Positions 6,328-63,794 of a stretch of DNA of 64,000 bases are shown piece after piece. Every line of letters starts with the position of its first letter. Position 1 is the stretch's first letter. The DNA is from Candidatus Aenigmatarchaeota archaeon (lineage in GTDB: Archaea > Aenigmatarchaeota > Aenigmatarchaeia > JACPZZ01): positions 10,111 to 74,110 of the forward strand of contig JACPAF010000001.1 in assembly GCA_016180965.1 (NCBI GenBank), written 5' to 3'. Below the pieces are notes generated by a model. The model had not been told where the DNA came from. It saw nothing but the letters and a program-made list of their open reading frames with translations, and did not search any database. The translations under genes were made by a program, and so were the position numbers.

Positions 6328-6367
6328 AACTGAAACAGATGCATACCAATAGCATCTGTTTCTAGTT
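6328..6367. repeat. tRNA-linked bulged palindromic hairpin (family copy)
   Basis: AACTGAAACAGATGC-ATACCAATA-GCATCTGTTTCTAGTT. The 3' end lies 5 nt (GCGAC) before tRNA-Lys +1. Confidence 0.8.
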
Positions 6368-6372
6368 GCGAC

Positions 6373-6469
6373 GGGCCCATAGCTCAGCCTGGTAGAGCAC
6401 CTGACTCTTAATTGAACTTTTGTTCATCGAGATATCAGGGAGTCGCGAGTTCAAATCTCGCTGGGCCCA
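6373..6469 (+). tRNA. tRNA-Lys-CTT: tRNA-Lys(CTT) with canonical 37/38 intron (6411-6433, 23 nt)
   Basis: Acceptor GGGCCCA/TGGGCCC, D arm GCTC..GAGC, anticodon arm CCTGA-CTCTTA|intron|A-TCAGG, T arm GCGAG-TTCAAAT-CTCGC. BHB has 3 of 4 central pairs. Confidence 0.9.
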
Positions 6470-14844: not shown

Positions 14845-14881
14845 GAAACGGACGCATACACAATGACGTCCGTTTCTAGTT
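14845..14881. repeat. tRNA-linked bulged palindromic hairpin (family copy)
   Basis: GAAACGGACG-CATACACAATGA-CGTCCGTTTCTAGTT, ending 6 nt before tRNA-Thr +1. Confidence 0.75.
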
Positions 14882-14887
14882 AGGATC

Positions 14888-14961
14888 GCCTCCGTAGCTC
14901 AATTCGGCAGAGCGAGTGCTTTGTAAGCACTAGGTTGCGGGTTCAAATCCCACCGGAGGCT
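14888..14961 (+). tRNA. tRNA-Thr-TGT: tRNA-Thr(TGT), intronless
   Basis: Acceptor GCCTCCG/CGGAGGC, anticodon arm AGTGC-TTTGTAA-GCACT, T loop TTCAAAT. Confidence 0.9.
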
Positions 14962-18356: not shown

Positions 18357-18409
18357 CTTATTAATATTTCTGAAGCAAACAGATGCTAAGTAAACTGAAT
18401 CATCGGTGG

Positions 18410-18490
18410 CTAGAAACATACGCTTAACAGCTAGAAGCATACCGTATACTGTATCGGTATGCTTCAGTTTACGACGCGTATGTTTCAGTT
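18410..18490. repeat. Nested pair of family hairpins upstream of tRNA-Leu
   Basis: Outer CTAGAAACATACGC...GCGTATGTTTCAGTT encloses inner CTAGAAGCATACCGTATACTGTATCGGTATGCTTCAGTT (18431-18469). Confidence 0.8.
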
Positions 18491-18512
18491 TCTCGATGAT
18501 TCTAACTGTAAC

Positions 18513-18733
18513 GCGGGGGTAGCCAAGCCCGGTCAAACTTGAGTGATGAGGTTAAGAAAACTGGCGCAACAACAAACTGACACATACATAGTATGTGTCT
18601 GGTTGCAATGCGCCTGTCTGAACAACCAATGACTAGAGGCGTCAGACTCAAGTTGAACTTTAGAAAAAAGTTTGATAGAAGAGGGAAATCTGATCTCCTA
18701 GCGAGTTCGTCGGTTCAAATCCGGCCCCCCGCA
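18513..18733 (+). tRNA. tRNA-Leu-CAA: tRNA-Leu(CAA) with D-loop intron (approx 18538-18635/7) and 37/38 intron (18653-18687)
   Basis: Exons join to GCGGGGGTAGCCAAGCCCGGTCAAA(GA)GGCGTCAGACTCAAGATCTGATCTCCTAGCGAGTTCGTCGGTTCAAATCCGGCCCCCCGCA, a typical archaeal class II tRNA-Leu. The D-loop intron has BHB core GTCA(18532-35)/TGAC(18630-33) with 3-nt bulges. Confidence 0.8.
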
Positions 18734-28194: not shown

Positions 28195-28280
28195 ACTGAA
28201 GCATACCGTATACTGAATAGGAAACCTTGGTTTCCTATTTGAGAAAACCGTAGGTTTTCTCAATATCGGCATGCTTCTGG
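28195..28280. repeat. Free-standing composite hairpin element (family arms enclosing two extra hairpins)
   Basis: ACTGAAGCATACCGTATAC...ATATCGGCATGCTTCTGG arms enclose ATAGGAAACC-TTGG-TTTCCTAT and GAGAAAACC-GTAG-GTTTTCTC. Lies between divergent ileS and the PilT-like ATPase, with no tRNA nearby. Confidence 0.7.
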
Positions 28281-30770: not shown

Positions 30771-30928
30771 CTAGAAATATGTGTTGACAGTAGCACATAT
30801 TTCAGTTAGTAGCTGAAAACAGTCACATACAAGATGTGACTGTTTTAGTTGTAGCTAGAAACATATGAATACCAATTGCATATGTTTCAGTTAGTTACAG
30901 CTAGACTCATACTTCGTATGAGTCAGTT
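30771..30928. repeat. Tandem array of four family hairpins directly upstream of tRNA-Arg
   Basis: H1 30771-30807, H2 30813-30850 (opposite bulge polarity), H3 30855-30892, H4 30901-30928. Flanks AG|CTAGA / CAGTT are conserved, stems differ but stay complementary. H4 ends 7 nt before tRNA +1. Confidence 0.85.
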
Positions 30929-30935
30929 TACAACA

Positions 30936-31051
30936 GGATCCGTAGCTCAGCCTGGACAGAGCAGCAGCCTCCTAACGAGCTTTTCCAAAAAGCTCGACCA
31001 AAAGAGAATGGAGATAGTTGAAGGTCGCGGGTTCAAATCCCGTCGGATCCG
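30936..31051 (+). tRNA. tRNA-Arg-CCT: tRNA-Arg(CCT) with canonical 37/38 intron (30975-31015, 41 nt)
   Basis: GGATCCG..GCAGC-CTCCTA|intron|A-GTTGA..GCGGG-TTCAAAT-CCCGT-CGGATCC-G. BHB core CTCC/GGAG. Confidence 0.85.
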
Positions 31052-39526: not shown

Positions 39527-40162
39527 GTGTGCCCGAATAATTCTATCAAACTTGATCCCAACAAGGACGTACTAAAAGCTAGATTGTGCGGTTTTTTGGC
39601 TGCCGACGGCAGCGTTTTCATAAGAAAGGAGACCAGAACAGGAAAAATTCACCACTCTATGAGATTTTACCCTGACAACTTAGTACTAGCTCAACTTTTC
39701 AATGACGTGCTAAAAGGCGTTTACGGCAGAGAGGCGGCGATAAAGAGTATGGGAAATTATTACGCTCTATCTTTAACTAGCAAACAAGCTGTCACAGATC
39801 TTTTATCGATAGCCAGTTTCACGTCCAAAGGTTGGACATTTCCTGAAACCATTGTTACCAAAGATGCAAAAATCGAGTGGCTAAGAGCTTATTTTGATTG
39901 TGATGGTTATGTTGGTAAAAAATACATCCAGCTGCAATCGGTCAATGAAAACGGTATAAAAGTGATACAAAAACTGTTAGAAGATTTCGGAATAGAGTCC
40001 AAAATATACGATTATACGAGAAAGAACAAGTCCTGGAACATAAATTATCTGCTGAACATAAACAAGAGGGAAATGCGTATTAAATTTTTGAGAGAAATAG
40101 GGTTCAATCACCCATTAAAAAGGAAGAAATTGGAAAGTTTAATCAATGCCGAGGTCGCATAA
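39527..40162 (+). CDS. Free-standing double-motif LAGLIDADG homing endonuclease-like protein
   Basis: 211 aa, GTG start. Two LAGLIDADG motifs (LCGFLAADGSVF, LRAYFDCDGYVG). The last 15 nt overlap the 5' end of tRNA-Ser. Confidence 0.75.
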   Translation: MCPNNSIKLDPNKDVLKARLCGFLAADGSVFIRKETRTGKIHHSMRFYPDNLVLAQLFNDVLKGVYGREAAIKSMGNYYALSLTSKQAVTDLLSIASFTSKGWTFPETIVTKDAKIEWLRAYFDCDGYVGKKYIQLQSVNENGIKVIQKLLEDFGIESKIYDYTRKNKSWNINYLLNINKREMRIKFLREIGFNHPLKRKKLESLINAEVA

Positions 40163-40320
40163 CCAGGTCAGTGCACCAGATTAAAAAAGGTGATTCTCGA
40201 AAACTGGCGGGCGCAAACAGCTAGAAGCAACAGTAAACCGAAACATGTCATAGACATGTTTCAGTCTGAACCTGCTTCAGTTGGCGATTGCCCATGAGGG
40301 TTCAAATCCCTCCCTCGGCG
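40148..40320 (+). tRNA. tRNA-Ser-CGA: tRNA-Ser(CGA) with 30/31 mini-intron (40180-40194) and 73-nt hairpin insertion in the variable arm (40214-40286)
   Basis: GCCGAGG-TC-GCAT..GTGC-A-CCAG|15 nt|T-CTCGAAA-ACTGG-CGGGCG|73 nt|ATTGCCCAT-GAGGG-TTCAAAT-CCCTC-CCTCGGC-G. Discriminator G. The mini-intron has BHB core CACC/GGTG. Confidence 0.7.
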
Positions 40321-40527: not shown

Positions 40528-40911
40528 ATGATAGCTGTTGTCGGCATTGTAGAGAATAACGGCAGGATACTGGTCGGAAAAAAGGTTTCCGGAAACAGTT
40601 TTCTTGCAGGCAAGTGGCACATACCAGGAGGCAAAGTTTTGCCCGGCGAAACGGATGAAATTGCGTTAAAGCGCGAGATGAAAGAGGAATGCGGAATAGA
40701 TGTTTCCGTAGGACGTTTTCTGGACGAATTTTACGAACCTGTCGCAGATATGCGTGCGAAATGGTTTTTGTGCTCTTGCGATGATGACAAATTAAAACCC
40801 GGCGGTGATTTGGCTGATGCCAAATGGGTTGATAAAAAAGACGCAATGGAAATCTGCGATAAAGACGCAATCGCGCGCTGGCCACGCAAAATCAAACGGT
40901 TTTTTGGTTAA
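40528..40911 (+). CDS. NUDIX hydrolase
   Basis: Start at the ATG at 40528. Nudix box GGKVLPGETDEIALKREMKEECG. Confidence 0.85.
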   Translation: MIAVVGIVENNGRILVGKKVSGNSFLAGKWHIPGGKVLPGETDEIALKREMKEECGIDVSVGRFLDEFYEPVADMRAKWFLCSCDDDKLKPGGDLADAKWVDKKDAMEICDKDAIARWPRKIKRFFG

Positions 40912-40988
40912 GCTTTTTATCAAAAAGGTTATTTTGGTTAAGCTTTTCAGGAAAAAGGTTATTTGGTTAAGCTTTTTATTAAAAAATT
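40904..40988 (+). repeat. Tandem direct repeat, about 30 nt x 2.8
   Basis: TTGGTTAAGCTTTTTATCAAAAAGGTTATT / TTGGTTAAGCTTTTCAGGAAAAAGGTTAT / TTGGTTAAGCTTTTTATTAAAAAATT. Each unit has a CTTTTT..AAAAAG hairpin. Lies between convergent genes. Confidence 0.8.
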
Positions 40989-41888: not shown

Positions 41889-41978
41889 AACAGACGCTTG
41901 GAGTATGCGTCTGTTTCGGTCAACCGCTGAATCATATGCATTTGGGAACTAGACTCGTATGATAGTATGAGTCTTGTT
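41889..41978. repeat. Two family hairpins upstream of tRNA-Val(CAC)
   Basis: AACAGACGC-TTGGAGTAT-GCGTCTGTT (41889-41915) and CTAGACTCGTATGA-TAG-TATGAGTCTTGTT (41949-41978). The latter ends 5 nt (ACGAC) before tRNA +1. Confidence 0.75.
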
Positions 41979-41983
41979 ACGAC

Positions 41984-42056
41984 GGGTCCATGGTCTAGTG
42001 GTTAGGACGTCGCGTTCACATCGCGGAGATCGCCGGTTCGAATCCGGCTGGACCCA
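41984..42056 (+). tRNA. tRNA-Val-CAC: tRNA-Val(CAC), intronless
   Basis: GGGTCCA..TCGCG-TTCACAT-CGCGG..GCCGG-TTCGAAT-CCGGC-TGGACCC-A. Confidence 0.9.
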
Positions 42057-42066
42057 ATAGTCGATT

Positions 42067-42102
42067 GAAGCATACCGATACAATCATAGGCATGTTTCTA
42101 GT
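42067..42102. repeat. Family hairpin (imperfect) downstream of tRNA-Val(CAC)
   Basis: GAAGCATACCGATA-CAATC-ATAGGCATGTTTCTAGTT. A further CTGAAACTTTCTT-CA-AAGAAAGTTTGTT hairpin lies at 42109-42136. Confidence 0.65.
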
Positions 42103-42626: not shown

Positions 42627-42686
42627 TTAGACCTACGAACTAATAATTCAAGCGTAGAAGATAAATAAGTTAAAGTCGACTGAAAC

Positions 42687-42759
42687 GGGCCTATGGTCTA
42701 GTGGTTAGGACGTCGCGTTTACACCGCGAAGACCGCCGGTTCGAATCCGGCTGGGCCCA
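42687..42759 (+). tRNA. tRNA-Val-TAC: tRNA-Val(TAC), intronless
   Basis: GGGCCTA..TCGCG-TTTACAC-CGCGA..GCCGG-TTCGAAT-CCGGC-TGGGCCC-A. Confidence 0.9.
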
Positions 42760-42971
42760 CTGGCAGACTGATGCATATCTCGGATATGCGTCTGATCGTA
42801 ACCGCCCTTTTGTGATCAAAAGCGCTGGCGGAAAAAAATAATTATACGAATGCGTGTAAACAGGAAACGTTAGGCTGTGGGAAAGCAAGTTTTGTAATAC
42901 AAAACTGCTGCAGTTTATCTGAAGATAAACTTGCAAACCTCAGGTTTTCGTGGTCGACTGACGCAGAGGTA

Positions 42972-43012
42972 AACTGAAGCATATCGATAGTGCATACGGT
43001 ATGCTTCCAGTT
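42972..43012. repeat. tRNA-linked bulged palindromic hairpin (family copy)
   Basis: AACTGAAGCATATCG-ATAGTGCATA-CGGTATGCTTCCAGTT, ending 5 nt (GTGAC) before tRNA-Ala +1. Confidence 0.8.
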
Positions 43013-43017
43013 GTGAC

Positions 43018-43106
43018 GGGCCGGTAGATCAACGGTAGATCGCCACATTGGCATTGGAAAGAGACCAAAATTGTGGAGGCTTCGGGTTCGAATCCCGACC
43101 GGTCCA
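43018..43106 (+). tRNA. tRNA-Ala-GGC: tRNA-Ala(GGC) with canonical 37/38 intron (43054-43070, 17 nt)
   Basis: GGGCCGG/CCGGTCC with G3:U70. CCACA-TTGGCA|intron|T-TGTGG. BHB core TTGG/CCAA. Confidence 0.9.
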
Positions 43107-47611: not shown

Positions 47612-49063
47612 ATGAAATTGGCTCTATTTGGTATCATTTTGGCTGTGATAGTTTCTGGTTGTACGGGTACAGGTGATTCAGGCAACACAGGAACAGGCGG
47701 ATCGGTTATCATAAAATCATTTTCTGCCGACGAAACAAATTTACAAGGCAACGACAGGACAACGCTTTCAACTGAAATTATCAACACAGGAGACTCAAAA
47801 GCCACCGCTGTTAAAATACAATTATTAGATTTGGATACGGCTTGCGCGCAACCTTCATGCGATTCGACGGAAACACAGTGGGGGTTGTCCAGCGGAAAGA
47901 CGAGCGATGTACTCACCGATTTGAGGATAAACACGCCGGGTGAAGAGGCCATAGCAAAACAATACAACTGGCGCGTGCAATCGCCAAAATTGCCGGCTAA
48001 TTTGCCACAGACCTACGATGCCAAAGCGAGAGTTTCATTCGGATATTCGACCACAGCTATCAAACAAATAAAAATTGTCACCCTATCTGAATACCAGAGG
48101 TTAAAAACGAACGGACAGACGTTGCCTGTTACTACAGCACAGCCGTCTAACGGGCCTTTAAAGATCGACGTAAGAGTGGCAGAGCCCGTCAGGATTGAAG
48201 AGGGTTCCACTACGTTCTTGCTTGTCATTGAAGTTACTAACCTGATTGGCGGAACCACGTTCCTGGCCGATAACCCGAACGACGTGTCAAAATGGAACCT
48301 GGCCAATTTGAAATTAACGCTTCCTTCAGGGCTTGCGATGGCAGAAACGAGCGGGGATTGCGCAGCCATCACAAGCAGCGTCACCATCGAGCTTTCAAAG
48401 GGCAAAAGTTACAAAACGCAATGCGAAGTCAAGACCACAACAAACATCCCGGTTTCGGTGGACAAGACCGTCAACGTTAAAGCTGATTACGGGTACTTTG
48501 TCGAATCCAAACTGTCCGTGCCTATATCGGTTATAGGAAAATCCAATTATGTCCCGCCTTCGGGCGGCGGTGCACCAGGACAGGCCGGAACAGGCACAGT
48601 AACACCTCCCGCGTCCGGCGGCTCAACTGCACCGGATACCGAACCGCCTAACACGGTTAGAAATATACAAGTCCAAAAATTCGCAGGACAACCCGGAACA
48701 GCGAGCGCGGGCAAGTGGCAATACACAATAAGTTTCCTCGAGCCATCCGACAATGTGGGCGTTGCGGGTTTTGAAATATATGTAGGCACAATCCAGCCAG
48801 CCACAGGAACTTGGAATACTGCTACTCTGGATGCCAGCAATGAAGTTAAGAAACAAGGCCTTGCATCCAATATACCGCTCGGTTCGAGAACACCTCAAGG
48901 AGGAACTGTGGAATCATTCCCACCCAACGGCGTGGCTAGATTGCTTTTAGATCCGAATACATCATATTGGATAGGCATTCTTGCTGTGGATGCCAGTGGA
49001 AACAGGGGAGACTTGTCAACATCCGCGGGTTCTGTAATCCAAATACAAACAGGTTCTTTCTAG
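47612..49063 (+). CDS. Putative lipoprotein with CARDB-like domains, Pro/Gly linker and FN3-like C-terminal domain
   Basis: 483 aa. MKLALFGIILAVIVSGC signal. STEIINTGDSKATAVKIQLLD. Linker PPSGGGAPGQAGTGTVTPPASGG. C-terminal VRNIQVQ...FEIYVG...YWIGILAVDASGNRG. Confidence 0.6.
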   Translation: MKLALFGIILAVIVSGCTGTGDSGNTGTGGSVIIKSFSADETNLQGNDRTTLSTEIINTGDSKATAVKIQLLDLDTACAQPSCDSTETQWGLSSGKTSDVLTDLRINTPGEEAIAKQYNWRVQSPKLPANLPQTYDAKARVSFGYSTTAIKQIKIVTLSEYQRLKTNGQTLPVTTAQPSNGPLKIDVRVAEPVRIEEGSTTFLLVIEVTNLIGGTTFLADNPNDVSKWNLANLKLTLPSGLAMAETSGDCAAITSSVTIELSKGKSYKTQCEVKTTTNIPVSVDKTVNVKADYGYFVESKLSVPISVIGKSNYVPPSGGGAPGQAGTGTVTPPASGGSTAPDTEPPNTVRNIQVQKFAGQPGTASAGKWQYTISFLEPSDNVGVAGFEIYVGTIQPATGTWNTATLDASNEVKKQGLASNIPLGSRTPQGGTVESFPPNGVARLLLDPNTSYWIGILAVDASGNRGDLSTSAGSVIQIQTGSF

Positions 49064-50337
49064 AATTTTTGTTTTGCGAATTCGCCCAGGCCTTTCTGCC
49101 CTGATTTTTGCATCTCAAACGAGCCTTCGAACAACGGAACTCCGTAGACGCCGTCGTAGCCCGGCTTAAATTTTAGCTCCCCATTACGCGATTTTATTAT
49201 TGCGTTTGCGATTTTTTCGTGCGTGATCTTTTTTAACTCGTTTTCAGGGACGTTCATCAACACGTTTAACTCTGTGCCAAATTGCGAGATTATTTTATCG
49301 TGTTCTTCGGTGACTTTTTTAGAGTATAATGCGTTGACACCGGTGACGTGCGATATTATCTCATACAACGGCAATAATGTTTTGAATGGTATCGCGTTTT
49401 TAGGAACAAAACCAACAGGACGGTCGGCTAATTGTTCAACACGACTGAGAACGCCTATTGTTAATCCCCGTTTGCAGCGCGGGCAAATACCATTTAATTT
49501 TTTTGTTTCAGACGGCTCTAAAGAAACGTTACAGTCTTTGTGGCCATCTAAATGGTATTTTCCATAATTCGGGTCGCACTCAATTGTATATAAAAACTTT
49601 TCCTTGTCCTTGTTTTTTATTGCATCGAAGATTTTGTTGTATGTGGGGTTTTCAATATCAAATACGTTCGCCTCTCTTCCTAACCTCCAAGGCCATGGTG
49701 AATGTGCGTCGGAATTTGAGATTAATGCAAACTTGTCCAAACTTGAAATGTTCCAGCACATCGCGGGATCCGCTGATAGGCCTGTTTCGATCGCGAAAAT
49801 GTTTTTTGTCTGATCCTGAAAACATTCTTCCACTGAGTTAAAACCGGATTTCGAACCGAAAATTGAAAACCATGGCGTAAACGAATGGGCTGGTATGATA
49901 AATGCATCTTTAGATATTGACACCACCAGTTCTGTAAATTCCGGACAGGTTATGTTTGTTAATATCGGACGTCCGTCTGCGGAAAGGTTTCCGTATCTGC
50001 TTAATTTTTCATTAATTTGGTCTACGATTTCGAAACTTGGAGCGAAAATCATGTTGTGGACTTTTTTGCTCACGCCGTTGACATAGTAAATCAGCGAAAC
50101 TTCCGATGTCAGCATAAAAGCTGTTTTCGTTTTGTTGTCCGTGAACAATCCCGTGCCATTAATTTCCTTCAATGAAGATTTCAAATCTTCCAAATGTTTC
50201 GGGTGTGTGAAATCGCCTGTTCCGAGAATGTCCAAGCCTTTCGTTTCTGCGAATTTTCCAAGCGTGTGTATGTTCATCTGGGGTGATGTGGCGCGGCTGT
50301 ATTTCGAATGTATCTGGAGGTCTGCGATAATTTTCAT
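49060..50337 (-). CDS. endoQ: Endonuclease Q-like PHP-domain nuclease with zinc ribbon
   Basis: Start moved to the ATG at 50337 (MKIIADLQIHSKYSRATSPQM...GTGDFTHP). CPRCKRGLTIGVLSRVEQL zinc ribbon. The 37 extra N-terminal codons in the track ORF overlap tRNA-Ile. Confidence 0.7.
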   Translation of the reverse strand: MKIIADLQIHSKYSRATSPQMNIHTLGKFAETKGLDILGTGDFTHPKHLEDLKSSLKEINGTGLFTDNKTKTAFMLTSEVSLIYYVNGVSKKVHNMIFAPSFEIVDQINEKLSRYGNLSADGRPILTNITCPEFTELVVSISKDAFIIPAHSFTPWFSIFGSKSGFNSVEECFQDQTKNIFAIETGLSADPAMCWNISSLDKFALISNSDAHSPWPWRLGREANVFDIENPTYNKIFDAIKNKDKEKFLYTIECDPNYGKYHLDGHKDCNVSLEPSETKKLNGICPRCKRGLTIGVLSRVEQLADRPVGFVPKNAIPFKTLLPLYEIISHVTGVNALYSKKVTEEHDKIISQFGTELNVLMNVPENELKKITHEKIANAIIKSRNGELKFKPGYDGVYGVPLFEGSFEMQKSGQKGLGEFAKQKF

Positions 50338-50372
50338 AGAGAATATTCCTTTGCCAGATGTAAAAATAGAAG

Positions 50373-50574
50373 TGGGCCCGACCGGATGATCGGCTGACAC
50401 ATCGCAGCTAGGCACACACAAGATGTGTGCCGATTTGCCGTGTGTCAAGCTTTCGAACCGGCGACCATGCCGTTGCTATCCATTGCAATTACGGCGTCTA
50501 CGCAGCTTAGTTTCGCAAGCAAATGCTTGCGGGCCTTATAAGACCGTCGCTCTACCAAGCTGAGCTACAGGCCC
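50373..50574 (-). tRNA. tRNA-Ile-TAT: tRNA-Ile(TAT) with three predicted introns (38/39: 50496-50535; variable loop: 50467-50489; T-loop 59/60: 50387-50451)
   Basis: Reverse complement gives GGGCCTG-TA-GCTC-AGCTTGGTA-GAGC-G-ACGGT-CTTATAA|40 nt|GCCGT-A|23 nt|GGTC-GCCGG-TTCGAA|65 nt|T-CCGGT-CGGGCCC-A. BHB cores: TTAT/GTAG (two G.U), GCCG/CGGC (perfect), TTCG/CGAT (3 of 4). Confidence 0.7.
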
Positions 50575-50586
50575 ACTTTGTCGACC

Positions 50587-50622
50587 GAAGCATACCGATA
50601 CAGTATACGGTATGCTTCTAGT
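50587..50622. repeat. Family hairpin just 5' of tRNA-Ile (minus-strand sense)
   Basis: GAAGCATACCGATACAGTATACGGTATGCTTCTAGTT. The reverse complement of 50588-50622 is identical over 35 nt to 18431-18465. An additional ACTGGCG..CGCCAGT hairpin lies at 50633-50657. Confidence 0.85.
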
Positions 50623-52667: not shown

Positions 52668-53860
52668 TTAAATTCGTTTTTGCTTCAACAACCCCATCCA
52701 TCGATTCGTACCGAGTCTTAGATCTATACCCGACGCCGCCGCCGGTGTCATCCCTAACGCCATGTGCGGACGGATGAAGTTGTAGTAGTTGCGGAAACCA
52801 ACCGAGAAGACCGCCTCACCGCCCTTGAACCCACGCATAACCTTATCTCGCTCTCGGAACGTGCCGTGAAACCGCTCTACGAGGTTGTTGTCAGGCTTCT
52901 TGCGGATGCTCTCCAGCCTGATATGCTGAACCCTATCGGGGTGTCGTCCGTGAGCATGATATTCGTCCTTTAGGGCTTGGTAGTAGCTTTGCAGACCATC
53001 CGTAACTACGAACTTTGGTAGTGTGCCAGCCGTCTCTTTGGCTAGCCTTAAAATCTGGCTCGCCTCACCTATTGTCCGTCCGTTGGTTACGTTGTTGGCT
53101 ATCAAAAATCGTGTCTTCTCGTCAACCATGTTCCAGACCCATCTCTCCCTGCCTTCGGACTTGATAGCCTGCTCATCCAGATGCCATGCTTCGCTTAATC
53201 TCGGTTTTAGGTCTTTGGTGTAGTCGTTGATCTTCTCTGTGAACTTGGTTATCCATTGCCTTACGGTTTCGTGGCTGACGACCACACCGTAGAACTGCTT
53301 TAGCGTGTCCGAGATCTCACGCAATGACAAACCCTTGTAATACAAATCCATAGCCAGCATTGCTATTTTGCTGTCAACGCTAAGGCGAGCGAAAACGCTG
53401 TCTTTGATAAACGTCTTTTTGCAGTCGAGGCATTGAAACCTCTGCTTAACACCATTGGTTGTTTTCCTGTTTCCGTTTTTCTTAATGTTGGTTGATTTGC
53501 AGTATTCGCATTTCGTTTTATCCTCGTCCGCAAACGGTATTGTGCTGTCGTCAACTTTCGCCCTCATTTTCAATAAAAACTCAACAGCATGGATGTGTTT
53601 GCATTTTTCTTTCCTATGAATAAAGTCGGGACATTCACACAGCCAACGCTTCTTTAGGACTACTTTATATTTCCTGTCCGAGTTCTGCGAAGGGACTAAA
53701 AACGTCTCCTTGTCAATAATCCTTGGCGTGTCGCCTTTGGCTATAATAGCGTAGCCCCTGATCTTTCTTGGGTCATCTTTAGGTTGTCTATTTGTTAACA
53801 TCATGTTAACTATTATGTAGGCTTAACTATTTAAACCTATGTTAACAAGACTTTAACATG
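52580..53860 (-). mobile_element. Insertion sequence (boundaries approximate)
   Basis: Single transposase gene. Weak candidate terminal repeats GGTTTAAT.. (52580) versus the reverse complement of ..ATTTAAACC (53838). 9-nt direct repeat CTATTTAAA at 52616 and 53827. Ends not resolved. Confidence 0.45.
52668..53804 (-). CDS. IS6-family-like DDE transposase with N-terminal SWIM and zinc-ribbon fingers
   Basis: 378 aa. CECPDF..CKHIH (SWIM-like), CEYC..CLDC ribbon. DDE core WHLDEQ..., FVVTDGLQSY, NNLVERFHGTFRERDKVMRGFK. Confidence 0.8.
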   Translation of the reverse strand: MMLTNRQPKDDPRKIRGYAIIAKGDTPRIIDKETFLVPSQNSDRKYKVVLKKRWLCECPDFIHRKEKCKHIHAVEFLLKMRAKVDDSTIPFADEDKTKCEYCKSTNIKKNGNRKTTNGVKQRFQCLDCKKTFIKDSVFARLSVDSKIAMLAMDLYYKGLSLREISDTLKQFYGVVVSHETVRQWITKFTEKINDYTKDLKPRLSEAWHLDEQAIKSEGRERWVWNMVDEKTRFLIANNVTNGRTIGEASQILRLAKETAGTLPKFVVTDGLQSYYQALKDEYHAHGRHPDRVQHIRLESIRKKPDNNLVERFHGTFRERDKVMRGFKGGEAVFSVGFRNYYNFIRPHMALGMTPAAASGIDLRLGTNRWMGLLKQKRI

Positions 53861-59761: not shown

Positions 59762-59828
59762 ACAAAAAACAGTTAAGCCGGGAAACACAATAAAAATATG
59801 GGATAATTTGATCAAACTAAACTCTTTG

Positions 59829-62800
59829 ATGAGAAAAGCCGCGGCAAAAAAGCAGTCGATGCAGGAAATAACCGAAACTGTTGAAAAAAACGAGGACGCT
59901 TCGAAAGCTGTGGGAAAAATTGTTTCTAGGGCGCTTGCTGTGAAACCGGAAAAGGGGTTCGTCGTTCCGAAATCAAAAGTTCGGCTGGTTGTTAGGAAAC
60001 TCATAGGCGCATCAGGTTACAAACAGGAACGCCGGGAAAATCCGATAGAAGAAATAATTAACAACCCGCAAAAACTGAAAAAAATCGCGGAGAAATATGG
60101 CGTTTCCGAATCTTCCATAGAGGATATTTACCACAGGCTGACAAGGCTGGAAGACCGCTCACGGCCAGGCATGTCGCCCGAAGACATGTTATCTTTGCGC
60201 AACGATTTGGCATCGGTCAAATCCGCGCCGGATTTTGGAAGATTAAACGACATAGATGAAATACGCCAAAGCCTTTCCGGAATTGAAGAACGCCTTGAGA
60301 ATGGAACTTCGAGCGCGGAGGACAAATTGCGCGAGGCTGAAATAGAAAGAGACAGCCTGGTTAAATCAAAGGACGAGGTCGAACGCAAATATTACAAACG
60401 GGAAATAGACGAACAAACTTTCAAAAAAATGATTTCGGATTACGAACAACAATTGATAAAAACCGAGGAAAAAATAAAAAGTTACCGGGCGCAAGGAACT
60501 AAACTGGGAATACCGAGGCCGGGCATAAAAATGGATCGCGTGTTCGAAAAATATGCCAAAGGCTTCAAAGCGGTTTATTTTCCAGTCTACGGCCAGGCCA
60601 TGCAACAGCAGATGATGCAGCCCGTGCAAGCTGTACAGCAAAACACAGAATCTCTGCGCCCTATTATAGCGATTGAAAGCAAAAACGTGATATCAAAAAG
60701 CGTTATCGACGGGATAGAAATACCGGACATGTCCAAGAAGGCCGAGCCGATTGACGCGGAACAAATTGAAAACATAATGAACATAAATGTAGTTTATCCG
60801 CTGATTCCGAGGGCGCCCGCAAAAGGCGAGACAGTTTATTCGTACACCAACATCAAATGGGACCAGCCGGACAACGCATTAGTTTACAACGTATTCGAGC
60901 CCGGGCTGACAGCTGAGGAAAAACACATACTTTCCAAGAGCAAAGAACTTCTTGAAGAGCGGTTAAACATAGACCTTCGAAAACTCCGAAAAGCCGAGGC
61001 GGTCAGCTATCTGATGAGACAAACGGATGACGTTTTTTCATTGATGGGCATCAAATTGGACCAGAAAAGGGTCGATGTGCTAAAATATTACATCAAAAGG
61101 GACTTTGTCGGACTGGAAAGGATAGACCCGATGATGAATGACCCGAACATAGAAGACATAAGCTGCGACGGCACGAACATACCGATTTACATATTTCACA
61201 GAAACCCGCTGATAGGTTCGATAAGGACAAACGTGAAATTCACCGACCAGAGAACACTGGACAATTTTGCGGTCAGGCTTGCGCAACGCGCGGGCAAAAA
61301 TATATCCGTTGCTAATCCCCTGTTGGACGGCACACTAACAGACGGCTCGCGAGTGCAAGCGACTCTAGGAACTGATATAGCGAGGCGCGGGTCGAATTTC
61401 ACAATAAGAAAATTTACCGATATACCATTAACTCCGATTGACATGCTGAATTACGGGACGATGAATGCGACAGCGCTTGCCTACCTTTGGATGGCTGTGG
61501 AAAACGGCAAATCTGTTTTAATCGGCGGATCAACCGCATCCGGTAAAACGACTTTGTTGAACGTGTTGTCCCTTTTCATAAAGCCCAACAAGAAAATAAT
61601 TTCGATTGAAGACAGCGTGACGGGAGACTCCGAAATACTGGTTAACAGGAACGGGTCGTTTGAAAAATTGCCGATTGAAAAATTGGTTGACGGACAGATA
61701 GAGAAGTACGGCAACGAAAAAGACGTCTTCGGCACGGAGTACTGCCAAACGAATCCGGAGGGCGTGCAAACTTTTTCAATGGATACAGAAGGAAAAATAA
61801 AACTCTGCCCGGTCAGGTCCTTTGTCAGGCACCGTGTAAACAAAGACGTTCTTGAGGTCACAACAAGGGCTGGCAGGAGAATCAAAGTTACGGGTGACCA
61901 TTCACTTTTTTCCTTGGACACGAATGGGAAAATAATTCCGGTAGAAGCGAGGAGCCTGCTAAAGGGAAGTTTTATAGCGACGCCAAGAACCTTACCGCAC
62001 GATACTAGAAAGCTGGAAAGCATCAACCTGCTTTCCGAAGCAAAATATTTGGAAGGCGTGTTCGTGGAAGGGGACGGATTGAAACACATACCAATACCGG
62101 AGTTGGTGAGGGCGGGCGCGAATGGGCGTCAAAAAAATAAATGTATTACGGACGGCCTGATTCCGGTGGAAATTTTCAACAGACTTAACAACGCTGAAGA
62201 ATTTATCGACGCACCAGGCGGGCTTTCGATAAAAGCCGGGCGGGGAGGCAAGGCTGTGAAAGCCGTTCTCAAACTGACTGACGAATTTTTAACATTGGTC
62301 GGCCTTTGGCTTGCAGACGGATGTTATGACAAAAATTCCGTTTTGATATCCGCTGCGAATGACGCTGAATGTAAATACTCCATAGAGCAGGCGGCATCCC
62401 AATTGGGGCTGGACTGCAAATACCACAGCGACGGGATAACGTACATGATAAACTCAACCGTACTCAAAAAGGTGATGGAAAATATTCTCGGGATTCGCGG
62501 GGACGCGTATACGAAAAGGGTTCCCGACTGGGTTTATAATCTAGGGATCGAGCAGATTTCCTGCCTGCTAAAAGGTTATTTCAGCGGGGACGGTTCGGTT
62601 TCAAAGGATGAGATAGAGGCAAGTTCTTCGTCCATCGGACTGATTAAAGACGTACACACCATGATGCTAAGGTTGGGAATAATGTCAAGGTTCACCACAA
62701 AGATCAAGGAGCGCGACAAAACCTATAGGATCCGGATAAGCGGATCTGAAAACCTGAAGATGTTCTGCAAAAAAATCGGCTTTTTACAAAAATACAAACA

Positions 62801-63794
62801 GGAAAAATTGGCTAATCGGTCGTTGATATTTGCAAACCATACAATTACCGATGTTATTCCTGTTACGAAAGAATTTTTGAGTGCATTGGCCGAGGAGGGC
62901 GCAATTTTTAACAGCAATTCATATTGGTACGGCAGCAAAATAGGCAGGAATGCCATGGGTAAAGCTGTTTTGCAAGGCGAAGGTAAATTCTTGTCCAAAG
63001 CCGCGCAGCTTGCAAATTCGGATCTTCTTTGGGACGAGATACTGGAAATACGAAACCTGGGCAAAACAGAACTTTATGTTTATGACCTCAGCGTCCCGAA
63101 TTTCGAAAATTTTGTGTGCGAAAATGTTATAGCGCACAATACGCCTGAATTACGTTTACCGCACCCTCACTGGGTGCCCGAGGTTGCGAGGACCGCAATA
63201 TCGGACACCGAAGGCAGGAAGATGGGAGAGGTAGACATGTTTGACCTGCTAAAAGAAAGTTTAAGACAACGGCCGGATTACATAATAGTCGGCGAAGTGC
63301 GAGGCAAAGAGGCGTACGTTTTATTCCAGCAAATGGCGTCGGGCCATCCTGGCATGTCCACGATACACGCCGACAGCATATCCAAACTTGTTGACAGATT
63401 AACAACGCCGCCGATAAGCCTGCCGGGCAACCTGATACAAAACCTTGACGTCCTGATATTCAGCGACACAACCAGCTTCAAGAGCAAGAACGTCAGGAAG
63501 ATAGACACGATAATGGAAATTGTCGGATATGAAAACGGCGCGCCGGTAGGCAATGTCGTTTTCAAATGGGATCCTGTGAAGAATTACCTGCGGGTTGTCG
63601 GGAAAAGCGCGCTTCTCAAAAAAATCGCGTACAGCAACAACATGTCGGAAAAAAACGTACGCGAGGAAATTTCTAACCGTGTGAAAGTTTTGGAGTGGAT
63701 GCAGGACAAGGGGATAAACGGTTTTTCATCGGTCGCTAAAATGTTCAACTTGTACACATCGGACCCGGAAAAAGCCCTTGCCATGGTCGATTAA
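59829..63794 (+). CDS. FlaI/PilB/VirB11-type secretion ATPase (type IV pilus assembly), intein-containing, with long N-terminal coiled-coil extension
   Basis: ATG at 59829 (upstream in-frame TTG at 59808). IEDISCDG, Walker A GGSTASGKTT, split Asp box IISIED|...|TPEL, IIVGEVRGKEA, His box SGHPGMSTIHA. Confidence 0.85.
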   Translation: MRKAAAKKQSMQEITETVEKNEDASKAVGKIVSRALAVKPEKGFVVPKSKVRLVVRKLIGASGYKQERRENPIEEIINNPQKLKKIAEKYGVSESSIEDIYHRLTRLEDRSRPGMSPEDMLSLRNDLASVKSAPDFGRLNDIDEIRQSLSGIEERLENGTSSAEDKLREAEIERDSLVKSKDEVERKYYKREIDEQTFKKMISDYEQQLIKTEEKIKSYRAQGTKLGIPRPGIKMDRVFEKYAKGFKAVYFPVYGQAMQQQMMQPVQAVQQNTESLRPIIAIESKNVISKSVIDGIEIPDMSKKAEPIDAEQIENIMNINVVYPLIPRAPAKGETVYSYTNIKWDQPDNALVYNVFEPGLTAEEKHILSKSKELLEERLNIDLRKLRKAEAVSYLMRQTDDVFSLMGIKLDQKRVDVLKYYIKRDFVGLERIDPMMNDPNIEDISCDGTNIPIYIFHRNPLIGSIRTNVKFTDQRTLDNFAVRLAQRAGKNISVANPLLDGTLTDGSRVQATLGTDIARRGSNFTIRKFTDIPLTPIDMLNYGTMNATALAYLWMAVENGKSVLIGGSTASGKTTLLNVLSLFIKPNKKIISIEDSVTGDSEILVNRNGSFEKLPIEKLVDGQIEKYGNEKDVFGTEYCQTNPEGVQTFSMDTEGKIKLCPVRSFVRHRVNKDVLEVTTRAGRRIKVTGDHSLFSLDTNGKIIPVEARSLLKGSFIATPRTLPHDTRKLESINLLSEAKYLEGVFVEGDGLKHIPIPELVRAGANGRQKNKCITDGLIPVEIFNRLNNAEEFIDAPGGLSIKAGRGGKAVKAVLKLTDEFLTLVGLWLADGCYDKNSVLISAANDAECKYSIEQAASQLGLDCKYHSDGITYMINSTVLKKVMENILGIRGDAYTKRVPDWVYNLGIEQISCLLKGYFSGDGSVSKDEIEASSSSIGLIKDVHTMMLRLGIMSRFTTKIKERDKTYRIRISGSENLKMFCKKIGFLQKYKQEKLANRSLIFANHTITDVIPVTKEFLSALAEEGAIFNSNSYWYGSKIGRNAMGKAVLQGEGKFLSKAAQLANSDLLWDEILEIRNLGKTELYVYDLSVPNFENFVCENVIAHNTPELRLPHPHWVPEVARTAISDTEGRKMGEVDMFDLLKESLRQRPDYIIVGEVRGKEAYVLFQQMASGHPGMSTIHADSISKLVDRLTTPPISLPGNLIQNLDVLIFSDTTSFKSKNVRKIDTIMEIVGYENGAPVGNVVFKWDPVKNYLRVVGKSALLKKIAYSNNMSEKNVREEISNRVKVLEWMQDKGINGFSSVAKMFNLYTSDPEKALAMVD
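61614..63140 (+). mobile_element. Intein (509 aa) with LAGLIDADG homing-endonuclease domain
   Basis: Starts SVTGDSEIL (Ser1), block B VTGDHSLF, DOD motifs LVGLWLADGCYD and LLKGYFSGDGSV, ends VIAHN followed by Thr+1. Splicing it out restores the canonical IISIED-TPEL. Confidence 0.85.

Follow-up and report, generated by a model that had tools for sequence, protein, structure and literature searches.

The window analyzed here is a stretch of 64,000 nucleotides from a Candidatus Aenigmatarchaeota archaeon (assembly GCA_016180965.1, contig JACPAF010000001.1, positions 10,111 to 74,110 of the forward strand; positions below are those of the window unless a relative is named). It contains a tRNA-Ser(CGA) gene whose variable-arm loop carries a 73-nt insert built from a hairpin repeat that has further copies in the window (Table 1). 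The variable-arm strands GGGC (40209–40212) and GCCC (40290–40293) enclose 77 nt. The identity of the gene and the presence of a 73-nt insert, both proposed in the preliminary description of this DNA, are confirmed by the sequence, by Rfam and by ARAGORN after splicing. According to a hand reading against the orthologs, the gene has a D stem of 3 bp, typical for class II tRNAs, an anticodon loop CUCGAAA and a T arm GAGGG-UUCAAAU-CCCUC. ARAGORN calls no tRNA in the unspliced gene or in its half-spliced forms, and an 86-nt tRNA-Ser(cga) is recognized only after removal of both 40180–40194 and 40217–40289. The former segment is an intron with a strict bulge-helix-bulge (BHB) motif: its central helix is formed by CACC (40174–40177) and GGTG (40189–40192), flanked by the bulges AG↓A and AT↓T, where the arrow marks the cut. 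The helix lengths are H=4/4 for the central, A=1 for the exon-side and B=2 for the intron-side helix. The same intron at position 30/31 is found in the relatives L103, L248, L249, L250 and L257. Since an identical sequence is present in two independent assemblies (L001, SRR12113384, and L258, SRR12113431), an assembly artefact is excluded.

Homologs of the neighboring NcsA-like protein are annotated as Candidatus Aenigmarchaeota/Aenigmatarchaeota (best identity 92%). The 3' end of a free-standing LAGLIDADG_3 open reading frame (ORF) of 211 aa (39527–40162, plus strand) lies within the tRNA-Ser gene, the stop codon TAA (40160–40162) being located 15 nt into the tRNA. In L249 and L250, both on the minus strand, a partial copy of the tRNA 5' end (GCCGAGGCGGGCATAAYTRT) immediately precedes the true GCCGAGG start, with which it makes up an imperfect palindrome.

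Orthologs of the gene were gathered through a shared neighborhood, which in many relatives comprises SAMP2, the NcsA-like protein, S-adenosylmethionine decarboxylase, arginyl-tRNA synthetase and tRNA-Ser(CGA). Further DPANN tRNA-Ser genes were obtained from a D-arm pattern scan of GTDB genomes. A metagenome scan with CGAAAACTGGCGGGCG returned 120 unrelated high-GC matches and no tRNA-Ser, and was uninformative. The variable arm is CGGGCGCAAGCCCAU in L257, L250 and L048, and close variants of it occur in L248, L249, L002, L006, L007, L251, L124 and L025; all these genes lack the insert. The first three read GGGCGCAA↓GCCC, within ...CTGGCGGGCGCAA↓GCCCATGAGGG, and all three read CGGGCGCAAGCCCAT, which is the spliced product of the window gene. 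Exon 2 of the window is contiguous with, and identical to, the corresponding sequence in L250, L257 and L048. These empty sites place the insert uniquely at 40217–40289, between A40216 and G40290; a shift of one base either way fails. The borders 40214–40286 proposed earlier therefore have to be moved 3 nt to the right. Excision in the corrected register restores GGGC-GCAA-GCCC, base for base the arm of the insert-free orthologs, and not the arm GGGC-GATT-GCCC expected previously. The GGCG direct repeat (40210–40213 and 40283–40286) had been regarded as a target-site duplication. This is not borne out: the upstream GGCG is separated from the insert by CAA, the corresponding pair is GGCG/GACG in L008, and none exists in L103 or L003.

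Inserts in the same loop are present in two further types of genes. L008 (= L058) carries a 41-nt insert homologous to that of the window, UAAACAGCUAGAAGCAUACC-AUC-GGUAUGUUUCAGUUGACGAAU; it has the outer hairpin without the nested family copy. Spliced in the same register, it gives the loop GUAA, again a GNRA tetraloop. The two lineages that keep the insert share about 84% identity in a neighboring protein. L103 and L003 (= L011) carry a different insert located 1 nt further 5', GGGCGAA↓U GCUAGA...UCUAGC CGCUAA↓A GCCC, which either encloses a full family hairpin or lacks one; their spliced arm is GGGC-GAAA-GCCC. The borders of this variable-arm intron are identical in the two tRNA-Ser genes (L003 5553–5743, minus strand; L103 1869–2017, plus strand). 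The other introns of these genes differ (37/38 and T-loop introns in L003, a 30/31 intron in L103), as do their anticodon stems. Since the variable-arm intron is shared while the rest is not, its distribution suggests movement by lateral transfer or recombination between co-occurring groundwater populations.

The preliminary description had found no BHB at the borders of the insert. A strict BHB is indeed missing, and all five registers of excision compatible with the GGCG repeat were rejected as candidates, having no BHB (best A=0, B=1); the best of them, p=40209/q=40282, provides nothing but a central helix, at the cost of melting the anticodon stem. In the corrected register, however, a relaxed BHB is found at the cuts 40216/40217 and 40289/40290 (H=3/4, A=2, B=5, two 3-nt bulges). 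It was detected with a scoring script in which the 5' exon and the intron must each end in four helix and two bulge bases. The script recovers the T-loop intron of L003 perfectly (A=5, H=4, B=5) as well as the anticodon-stem intron of the window gene. The intron-side helix of 5 bp (40218–40222/40279–40283) is the foot of the family hairpin, and the exon-side helix consists of 2 bp (GG/CC, 40209–40210/40291–40292). Of 18 registers tested, one has this signature and the 17 neighboring registers have none. The same criteria are satisfied by 5e-4 of random junctions, and by 2.5% of junctions with a hairpin already in register. In L008, the central helix in the same register is GCGT/ACGA; a C-G pair is replaced by T-A in a compensatory manner and the G·A mismatch is kept. 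The intron of L103 and L003 has a strict central helix, GGCG/CGCT, with bulges AA↓U and AA↓A and an intron-side helix of 6 bp (B=6).

Judging from the sequence comparison, the 73 nt at 40217–40289 are probably a protein-spliced tRNA intron removed by the splicing endonuclease, rather than the sign of an inactivated gene or of a giant arm that is retained. In the precursor, pairing of the exon bases GCGC (40211–40214) with the intron bases GCGA (40284–40287) would leave one bulge on either strand, AA↓A and UU↓G. The family hairpin would contribute its foot as the intron-side helix, and the GG/CC pairs would form the exon-side helix. The tRNA splicing endonuclease could then cut after A40216 and U40289, and an RtcB-type ligase could join the exons. 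Together with the removal of the strict-BHB intron 40180–40194, this would yield a normal 86-nt tRNA-Ser with the variable arm GGGC-GCAA-GCCC. The host enzyme must handle such sites, because an intron with a strict BHB occupies a non-canonical position of this gene and several other tRNAs of the window have multiple introns. Among the three fates considered in the preliminary description, removal is thus favored, and its putative route is cleavage of a relaxed motif by the standard endonuclease rather than a non-standard one.

Several observations weigh against this interpretation. Only three of the four central-helix pairs are standard, with a G·A completing the helix in both the window and L008, and the covariation of this helix amounts to one substitution pair in two sequences. 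Combinatorial BHBs are common, with about 580 per strand in the window (A>=3, H=4, B>=3); for this reason the motif alone proves little, and the weight rests on the coincidence of the motif, the empty-site junction and the behavior of the orthologs. Neither a splicing endonuclease (EndA) nor a ligase (RtcB) gene is present among the 57 ORFs of the window. The BHB conformer lies 7 kcal/mol above the minimum free energy (MFE) structure, which merely extends the variable arm. The fold of the precursor is very stable (-65.8 kcal/mol, z = -5.7, with 0 of 200 shuffled sequences equally stable), and in it the insert is a single long hairpin stacked on the variable-arm stem. The MFE folds of L103 and L003, in which the central helix is strict, likewise lack the BHB.

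This stacking, along with the imperfect BHB at the borders, would also suit a tRNA from which the insert is never removed and which works fully or partly with a giant variable arm of about 88 nt, extending the normal arm as a long helix. Seryl-tRNA synthetases read the variable arm chiefly by length and orientation, which could be reconciled with such a molecule. Nevertheless, a retained arm is improbable: the closest relatives have a standard variable region of 15 nt, the splice-site geometry at the borders restores exactly this sequence in the window and in L008, and the unspliced form is rejected by ARAGORN. To our knowledge, no functional tRNA has a variable arm near this length.

Splicing of the inner 51 nt only (40230–40280) would leave a variable region of 37 nt. 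A strict BHB inside the insert, at 40229/40280, could direct it (H=4/4, A=4, B=3; exon-side helix GCTA/TGGC, central helix GAAG/CTTC, intron-side helix CAG/CTG). Such motifs are expected by chance about once per 110 nt, and the conformation lies 9 kcal/mol above the MFE. The product is not recognized as a tRNA by ARAGORN, restores neither a hairpin nor any ortholog sequence, and has no equivalent in L008. The internal motif was accordingly rejected as a chance-level candidate with no sensible product, and this route is very improbable.

The insertion could also have killed the gene, with UCG codons read by a tRNA-Ser(UGA) encoded elsewhere. Genes of tRNA-Ser(UGA) exist in the related genomes L026, L061 and L110, and the CGA gene might be dispensable, which counts against splicing as well. 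Moreover, other relatives carry a TTTAAATA promoter box about 24 nt upstream of tRNA-Ser, which the window copy has lost to the LAGLIDADG ORF overlapping its 5' end. The same overlap, with a protein 78% identical, occurs in L257, where the gene is otherwise normal up to the contig end. All stems of the window gene are intact. Apart from one D-loop base, its exons match those of L250 and L257 exactly, whereas the introns diverge. The D stem shows a compensatory change between the window (GCA/TGC) and L008 (ACA/TGT), and the insert persists in both lineages with compensatory changes there and in the central helix. Because of the ARAGORN call after splicing, the conservation of exons against variable introns and the compensatory D-stem change, a pseudogene is disfavored, and loss of function appears unlikely, to about the same degree as a retained arm.

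Table 1. Features of the tRNA-Ser(CGA) gene and copies of the hairpin family in the window.
Feature	Position	Strand	Description
tRNA-Ser(CGA) gene	40148–40320	+	Rfam RF00005, 36.6 bits (gathering score 29); ARAGORN on spliced sequence
Acceptor, discriminator, anticodon	40148–40154/40313–40319; 40320; 40198–40200	+	GCCGAGG/CCTCGGC; G; CGA; hand reading against orthologs
Exon 1	40148–40179	+	acceptor 5' strand, D arm, anticodon-stem bases 1–4; sequence, ortholog alignment
Intron 1	40180–40194	+	15 nt (ATTAAAAAAGGTGAT); position 30/31 in anticodon-stem 5' strand; strict BHB
Exon 2	40195–40216	+	last anticodon-stem 5' base, anticodon loop, stem 3' strand, variable-arm GGGC, loop GCAA
Probable variable-arm intron	40217–40289	+	73 nt; unique placement against empty sites; BHB-like signature in this register only
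Exon 3	40290–40320	+	variable-arm 3' strand GCCC, AT, T arm, acceptor 3' strand, discriminator
Predicted central BHB helix, exon side	40211–40214	+	GCGC; pairs C40212-G40286, G40213-C40285, C40214-G40284; mismatch G40211·A40287
Predicted central BHB helix, intron side	40284–40287	+	GCGA
Predicted 5' bulge	40215–40217	+	AA↓A; predicted cut after A40216; BHB geometry
Predicted 3' bulge	40288–40290	+	UU↓G (TT↓G in DNA); predicted cut after T40289
Outer family hairpin of insert	40218–40283	+	foot CAGCT 40218–40222/AGTTG 40279–40283; A40223 bulged; GAAGCA 40224–40229/TGCTTC 40273–40278
Second family element, nested in outer loop	40230–40271	+	core GAAACATGTC-ATA-GACATGTTTC at 40240–40262
Family core	6332–6362		ends 10 nt before tRNA at 6373
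Family core	14845–14876		ends 11 nt before tRNA-Thr at 14888
Three nested family hairpins	18397–18502		end 10 nt before tRNA-Leu(CAA) 18513–18733
Family stem (GAAGCAUACCG/CGGCAUGCUUC) enclosing two small hairpins	28198–28277		between isoleucyl-tRNA synthetase and PIN-ATPase genes; no tRNA near
Two tandem family hairpins	30858–30924		30858–30888 and 30904–30924; end 11 nt before tRNA at 30936
Family hairpin	41952–41973		ends 10 nt before tRNA-Val at 41984
Family hairpin	42067–42098		starts 10 nt after tRNA-Val 3' end (42056)
Family-like hairpin	42770–42792		starts about 10 nt after 3' end of second tRNA-Val (42759)
Family hairpin	42976–43007		ends 10 nt before tRNA-Pro at 43018
Family hairpin	50587–50618		12 nt upstream of minus-strand tRNA 50574–50373

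The body of the putative intron consists of two nested copies of a clade-specific hairpin repeat. The preliminary description had assigned the insert to such a family, and this assignment holds. About 13–16 copies are present in the window, depending on how nested and degenerate ones are counted (repeat finding and a simple pairing search), which corresponds to about one copy per 4 kb. The consensus in one orientation is GUMRACY-GAARC-(5–6 variable pairs)-loop-GYUUC-YAGUURYRAC. Each copy forms an imperfect palindrome in which the foot is conserved and one base is bulged, and copies nest in each other's loops at 18397–18502 and in the insert studied here (40218–40283). The outer hairpin of the insert is present in the MFE fold and matches the family copy at 18427–18472; its arms CTAGAAGCA...TGCTTCAGTT span 40221–40282. 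The element at 28198–28277, with its two enclosed hairpins, may represent a small RNA or else a composite repeat.

When 19 copies are aligned, each of the 11 core pairs is maintained throughout, and at seven of them both partners have changed. This gives a covariation score of 0.469, as against 0.20 for shuffled sequences and at most 0.11 with slid partners, for copies that had been preselected by a pairing filter. This strong stem covariation would arise equally from hairpins of single-stranded DNA. Several copies contain wobble G·U pairs on the tRNA-sense strand, and these mildly favor structure and selection at the RNA level. A search of every hairpin copy against Rfam 15, even at E<=10, gave no match. 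Further copies of the family occur in the close clade (L002, L003, L006, L008, L103 and L248–L251). No family hairpins were found in the more distant Aenigmarchaeota loci compared, and within this comparison the family is restricted to the close clade. Three matches to the palindrome core in viral contigs belong to contigs of 61% GC with unrelated flanks and are due to chance.

The copies are closely associated with the borders of tRNA genes (Table 1). Seven tRNAs of the window have a copy whose core ends 10–12 nt before position +1, and two have a copy whose core starts 10 nt past the 3' end; the same pattern is seen in relatives. A similar distance separates the core from the start of exon 3 in the variable-arm introns (11 nt in the window, 11 nt in L008 and 10 nt in L103). 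L249 and L248 carry a copy within an intron at position 8/9 (BHB CGAG/CUCG), and L250 has the same intron without the hairpin. Since the core in L249 and L248 lies about 18 nt from the downstream exon, the spacing rule is not valid in every intron.

Two possible explanations of the spacing were rejected. BHB-type cleavage of the leader hairpins at the -1/+1 boundary of the tRNA has no consistent motif at the eight tRNAs inspected. A role of the hairpin loop as a TATA box fits by position (the center is at about -26 from +1) and not by sequence. The loops preceding tRNA-Leu and the tRNA at 30936 do not form A/T boxes, and a TATA-box role is also contradicted by the copies located 10 nt downstream of tRNAs. 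Neither a promoter function nor BHB cleavage explains the near-fixed distance of 10–12 nt to the mature tRNA ends. The tRNA-Val at 42687, which lacks a hairpin, is preceded by GTCGACTGAAAC (42675–42686), which equals the family left flank plus the first arm bases. It looks as if the repeat might be derived from, or mimic, a native tRNA leader.

Other tRNA genes of the window are interrupted as well. A class II tRNA-Leu(CAA) on the plus strand, identified by hand, was missed by both ARAGORN and Rfam. Its D loop contains an insert of about 100 nt with a family hairpin at 18579–18599, and a second insert lies beside the anticodon; no strict BHB was found for the D-loop insert. The minus-strand tRNA at 50373–50574 also escaped both programs. 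A large insert with nested hairpins occupies its T loop, more inserts lie around the anticodon, and its 3' part is overlapped by a longest-ORF call (49060–50448). The plus-strand tRNA at 6373–6469 is labeled Ile(aat) by ARAGORN; a hand reading gives the loop CUCUUAA and an intron at the canonical position, which would give the anticodon CUU (Lys). ARAGORN additionally missed tRNA-Ser(CGA) and three other interrupted tRNAs found by Rfam. Since two heavily interrupted genes escape both programs, and more escape ARAGORN, the tRNA sets of such genomes will look incomplete.

Three tandem A/T-rich units of about 30 nt (AAAGGTTATTTGGTTAAGCTTTTTAT...) lie at 40894–40985; they overlap the 3' end of a NUDIX gene and stop short of an AP-endonuclease-like gene. 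An intein with a LAGLIDADG domain splits the gene of a type II/IV secretion family ATPase (59808–63794, plus strand). The minus strand encodes an IS240-like DDE transposase at 52668–53804.

We infer that the variable-arm intron arose through the hairpin repeat, which would have supplied the intron-side helix. One way for this to happen, compatible with splicing and put forward tentatively, is the landing of a mobile DNA-level repeat in the variable loop. It could be a miniature inverted-repeat transposable element (MITE), a repetitive extragenic palindromic (REP) sequence or an IS200/IS605-derived element. It would have survived because its paired ends and the GC-rich self-complementary target (GCGC) chanced to form a cleavable motif. 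The high copy number, the palindromic architecture, the nesting and the patchy presence among close relatives are in agreement with such an origin, as are fragments of TnpB-type genes in L003 and L008. The insert end GGCGATT weakly resembles the target GGCGCAA (4/7); a degenerate 7-nt duplication of this kind is nevertheless unlikely, being unsupported and at odds with L103 and L003. No clean target-site duplication exists, and the window contains no IS200/IS605 or other matching transposase. Neither an HUH (Y1) transposase nor a REP-associated tyrosine transposase (RAYT) is found among its 57 ORFs, and no reverse transcriptase or transposase gene able to account for the family is present there, the IS240-like transposase being the only one. 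The wobble pairs of the tRNA-sense strand point to selection at the RNA level, and the fixed distance to the mature tRNA ends is not explained by ordinary transposition.

A more speculative and rather doubtful possibility is that this lineage gains its tRNA introns by way of the hairpin family, acting as a small mobile vehicle with ends that fall on mature tRNA boundaries and on exon junctions. On this assumption, a paired foot placed beside a short complementary stretch would create a cleavable BHB at once. Since the ends of the element coincide with boundaries defined in RNA, such a vehicle would point to an RNA-level step. For instance, an excised hairpin RNA could be ligated or reverse-spliced onto tRNA ends and then copied into DNA. 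Alternatively, an unknown enzyme targeting the borders of tRNA genes could be the agent.

Similar repeats are REP sequences and bacterial interspersed mosaic elements (BIMEs), IS200/IS605-derived palindromic elements (PATEs) and MITEs. All of them are abundant, short and imperfectly palindromic, contain a conserved foot as well as a bulged base, and can nest. The hairpin family shares these features. Unlike those elements, it has no target-site duplication and no partner transposase in the window, its link to tRNA borders is very tight, and the wobble pairs of its stem fit an RNA-level structure.

Among known tRNA introns, the closest parallels are non-canonical archaeal BHB introns. Variable-region introns with BHB-like borders were verified experimentally in Aeropyrum pernix, for example in tRNA-Lys (PMC4307357), and position 45/46 is a listed non-canonical intron site (PMC4090602). 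As in those cases, the insert studied here lies in the tRNA body away from 37/38, its borders fall in two 3-nt bulges split by a short helix, the joined exons form a normal tRNA, and a second intron is present in the same gene. Unlike in those cases, it occupies the loop of a class II long variable arm, its central helix has three standard pairs and a G·A, and nested copies of a genome-wide hairpin repeat make up its body.

Relaxed BHB motifs (hBH, HBh', BHL) are processed by endonucleases of broad specificity, namely the crenarchaeal (alpha-beta)2, the ARMAN-2 epsilon2 and the DPANN alpha4 type with an L3 insert (PMC3239211, PMC5829648). In DPANN archaea, insert-bearing endonucleases accompany disrupted tRNA genes (PMC5829648). 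The imperfect motif, the non-canonical position and a lineage rich in disrupted tRNA genes make the present locus similar to these substrates; in contrast to systems with a defined endonuclease, no endonuclease gene was found in this window.

In Thermoproteales, transposed intron families are shared between tRNAs, with no mechanism given in what PMC4090602 and PMC4033280 relay of Fujishima et al. (2010). As far as that account extends, both systems have related sequences at different positions and in different tRNA genes, a patchy distribution among close relatives and a mechanism of gain that is unknown. The present one differs from what is relayed there in that the unit also occurs outside introns, 10–12 nt from mature tRNA ends and at a few intergenic spots, that the host belongs to DPANN, and that filled and empty sites of the same gene are at hand. 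The literature searched contains no description of such a structured repeat both in tRNA introns and at tRNA gene borders. The points of difference are the site in a class II variable-arm loop, the relaxed central helix and, above all, an intron body belonging to this repeat.

How archaeal tRNA genes gain introns at new positions is still unknown; related introns occur in unrelated tRNAs, with no mechanism (PMC4090602). At the locus described here, one and the same gene is found in filled and in empty form in close relatives. It includes two different hairpin-bearing introns located 1 nt apart in the same loop, and one hairpin-bearing intron common to genes whose other introns differ. The body of the intron is part of an abundant repeat that also sits exactly at the borders of tRNA genes. 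Because these features are combined at one locus, the question of intron gain becomes testable. The tRNA-Ser(CGA) gene is thus a concrete snapshot bearing on the gain of archaeal tRNA introns and may show how such introns arise.

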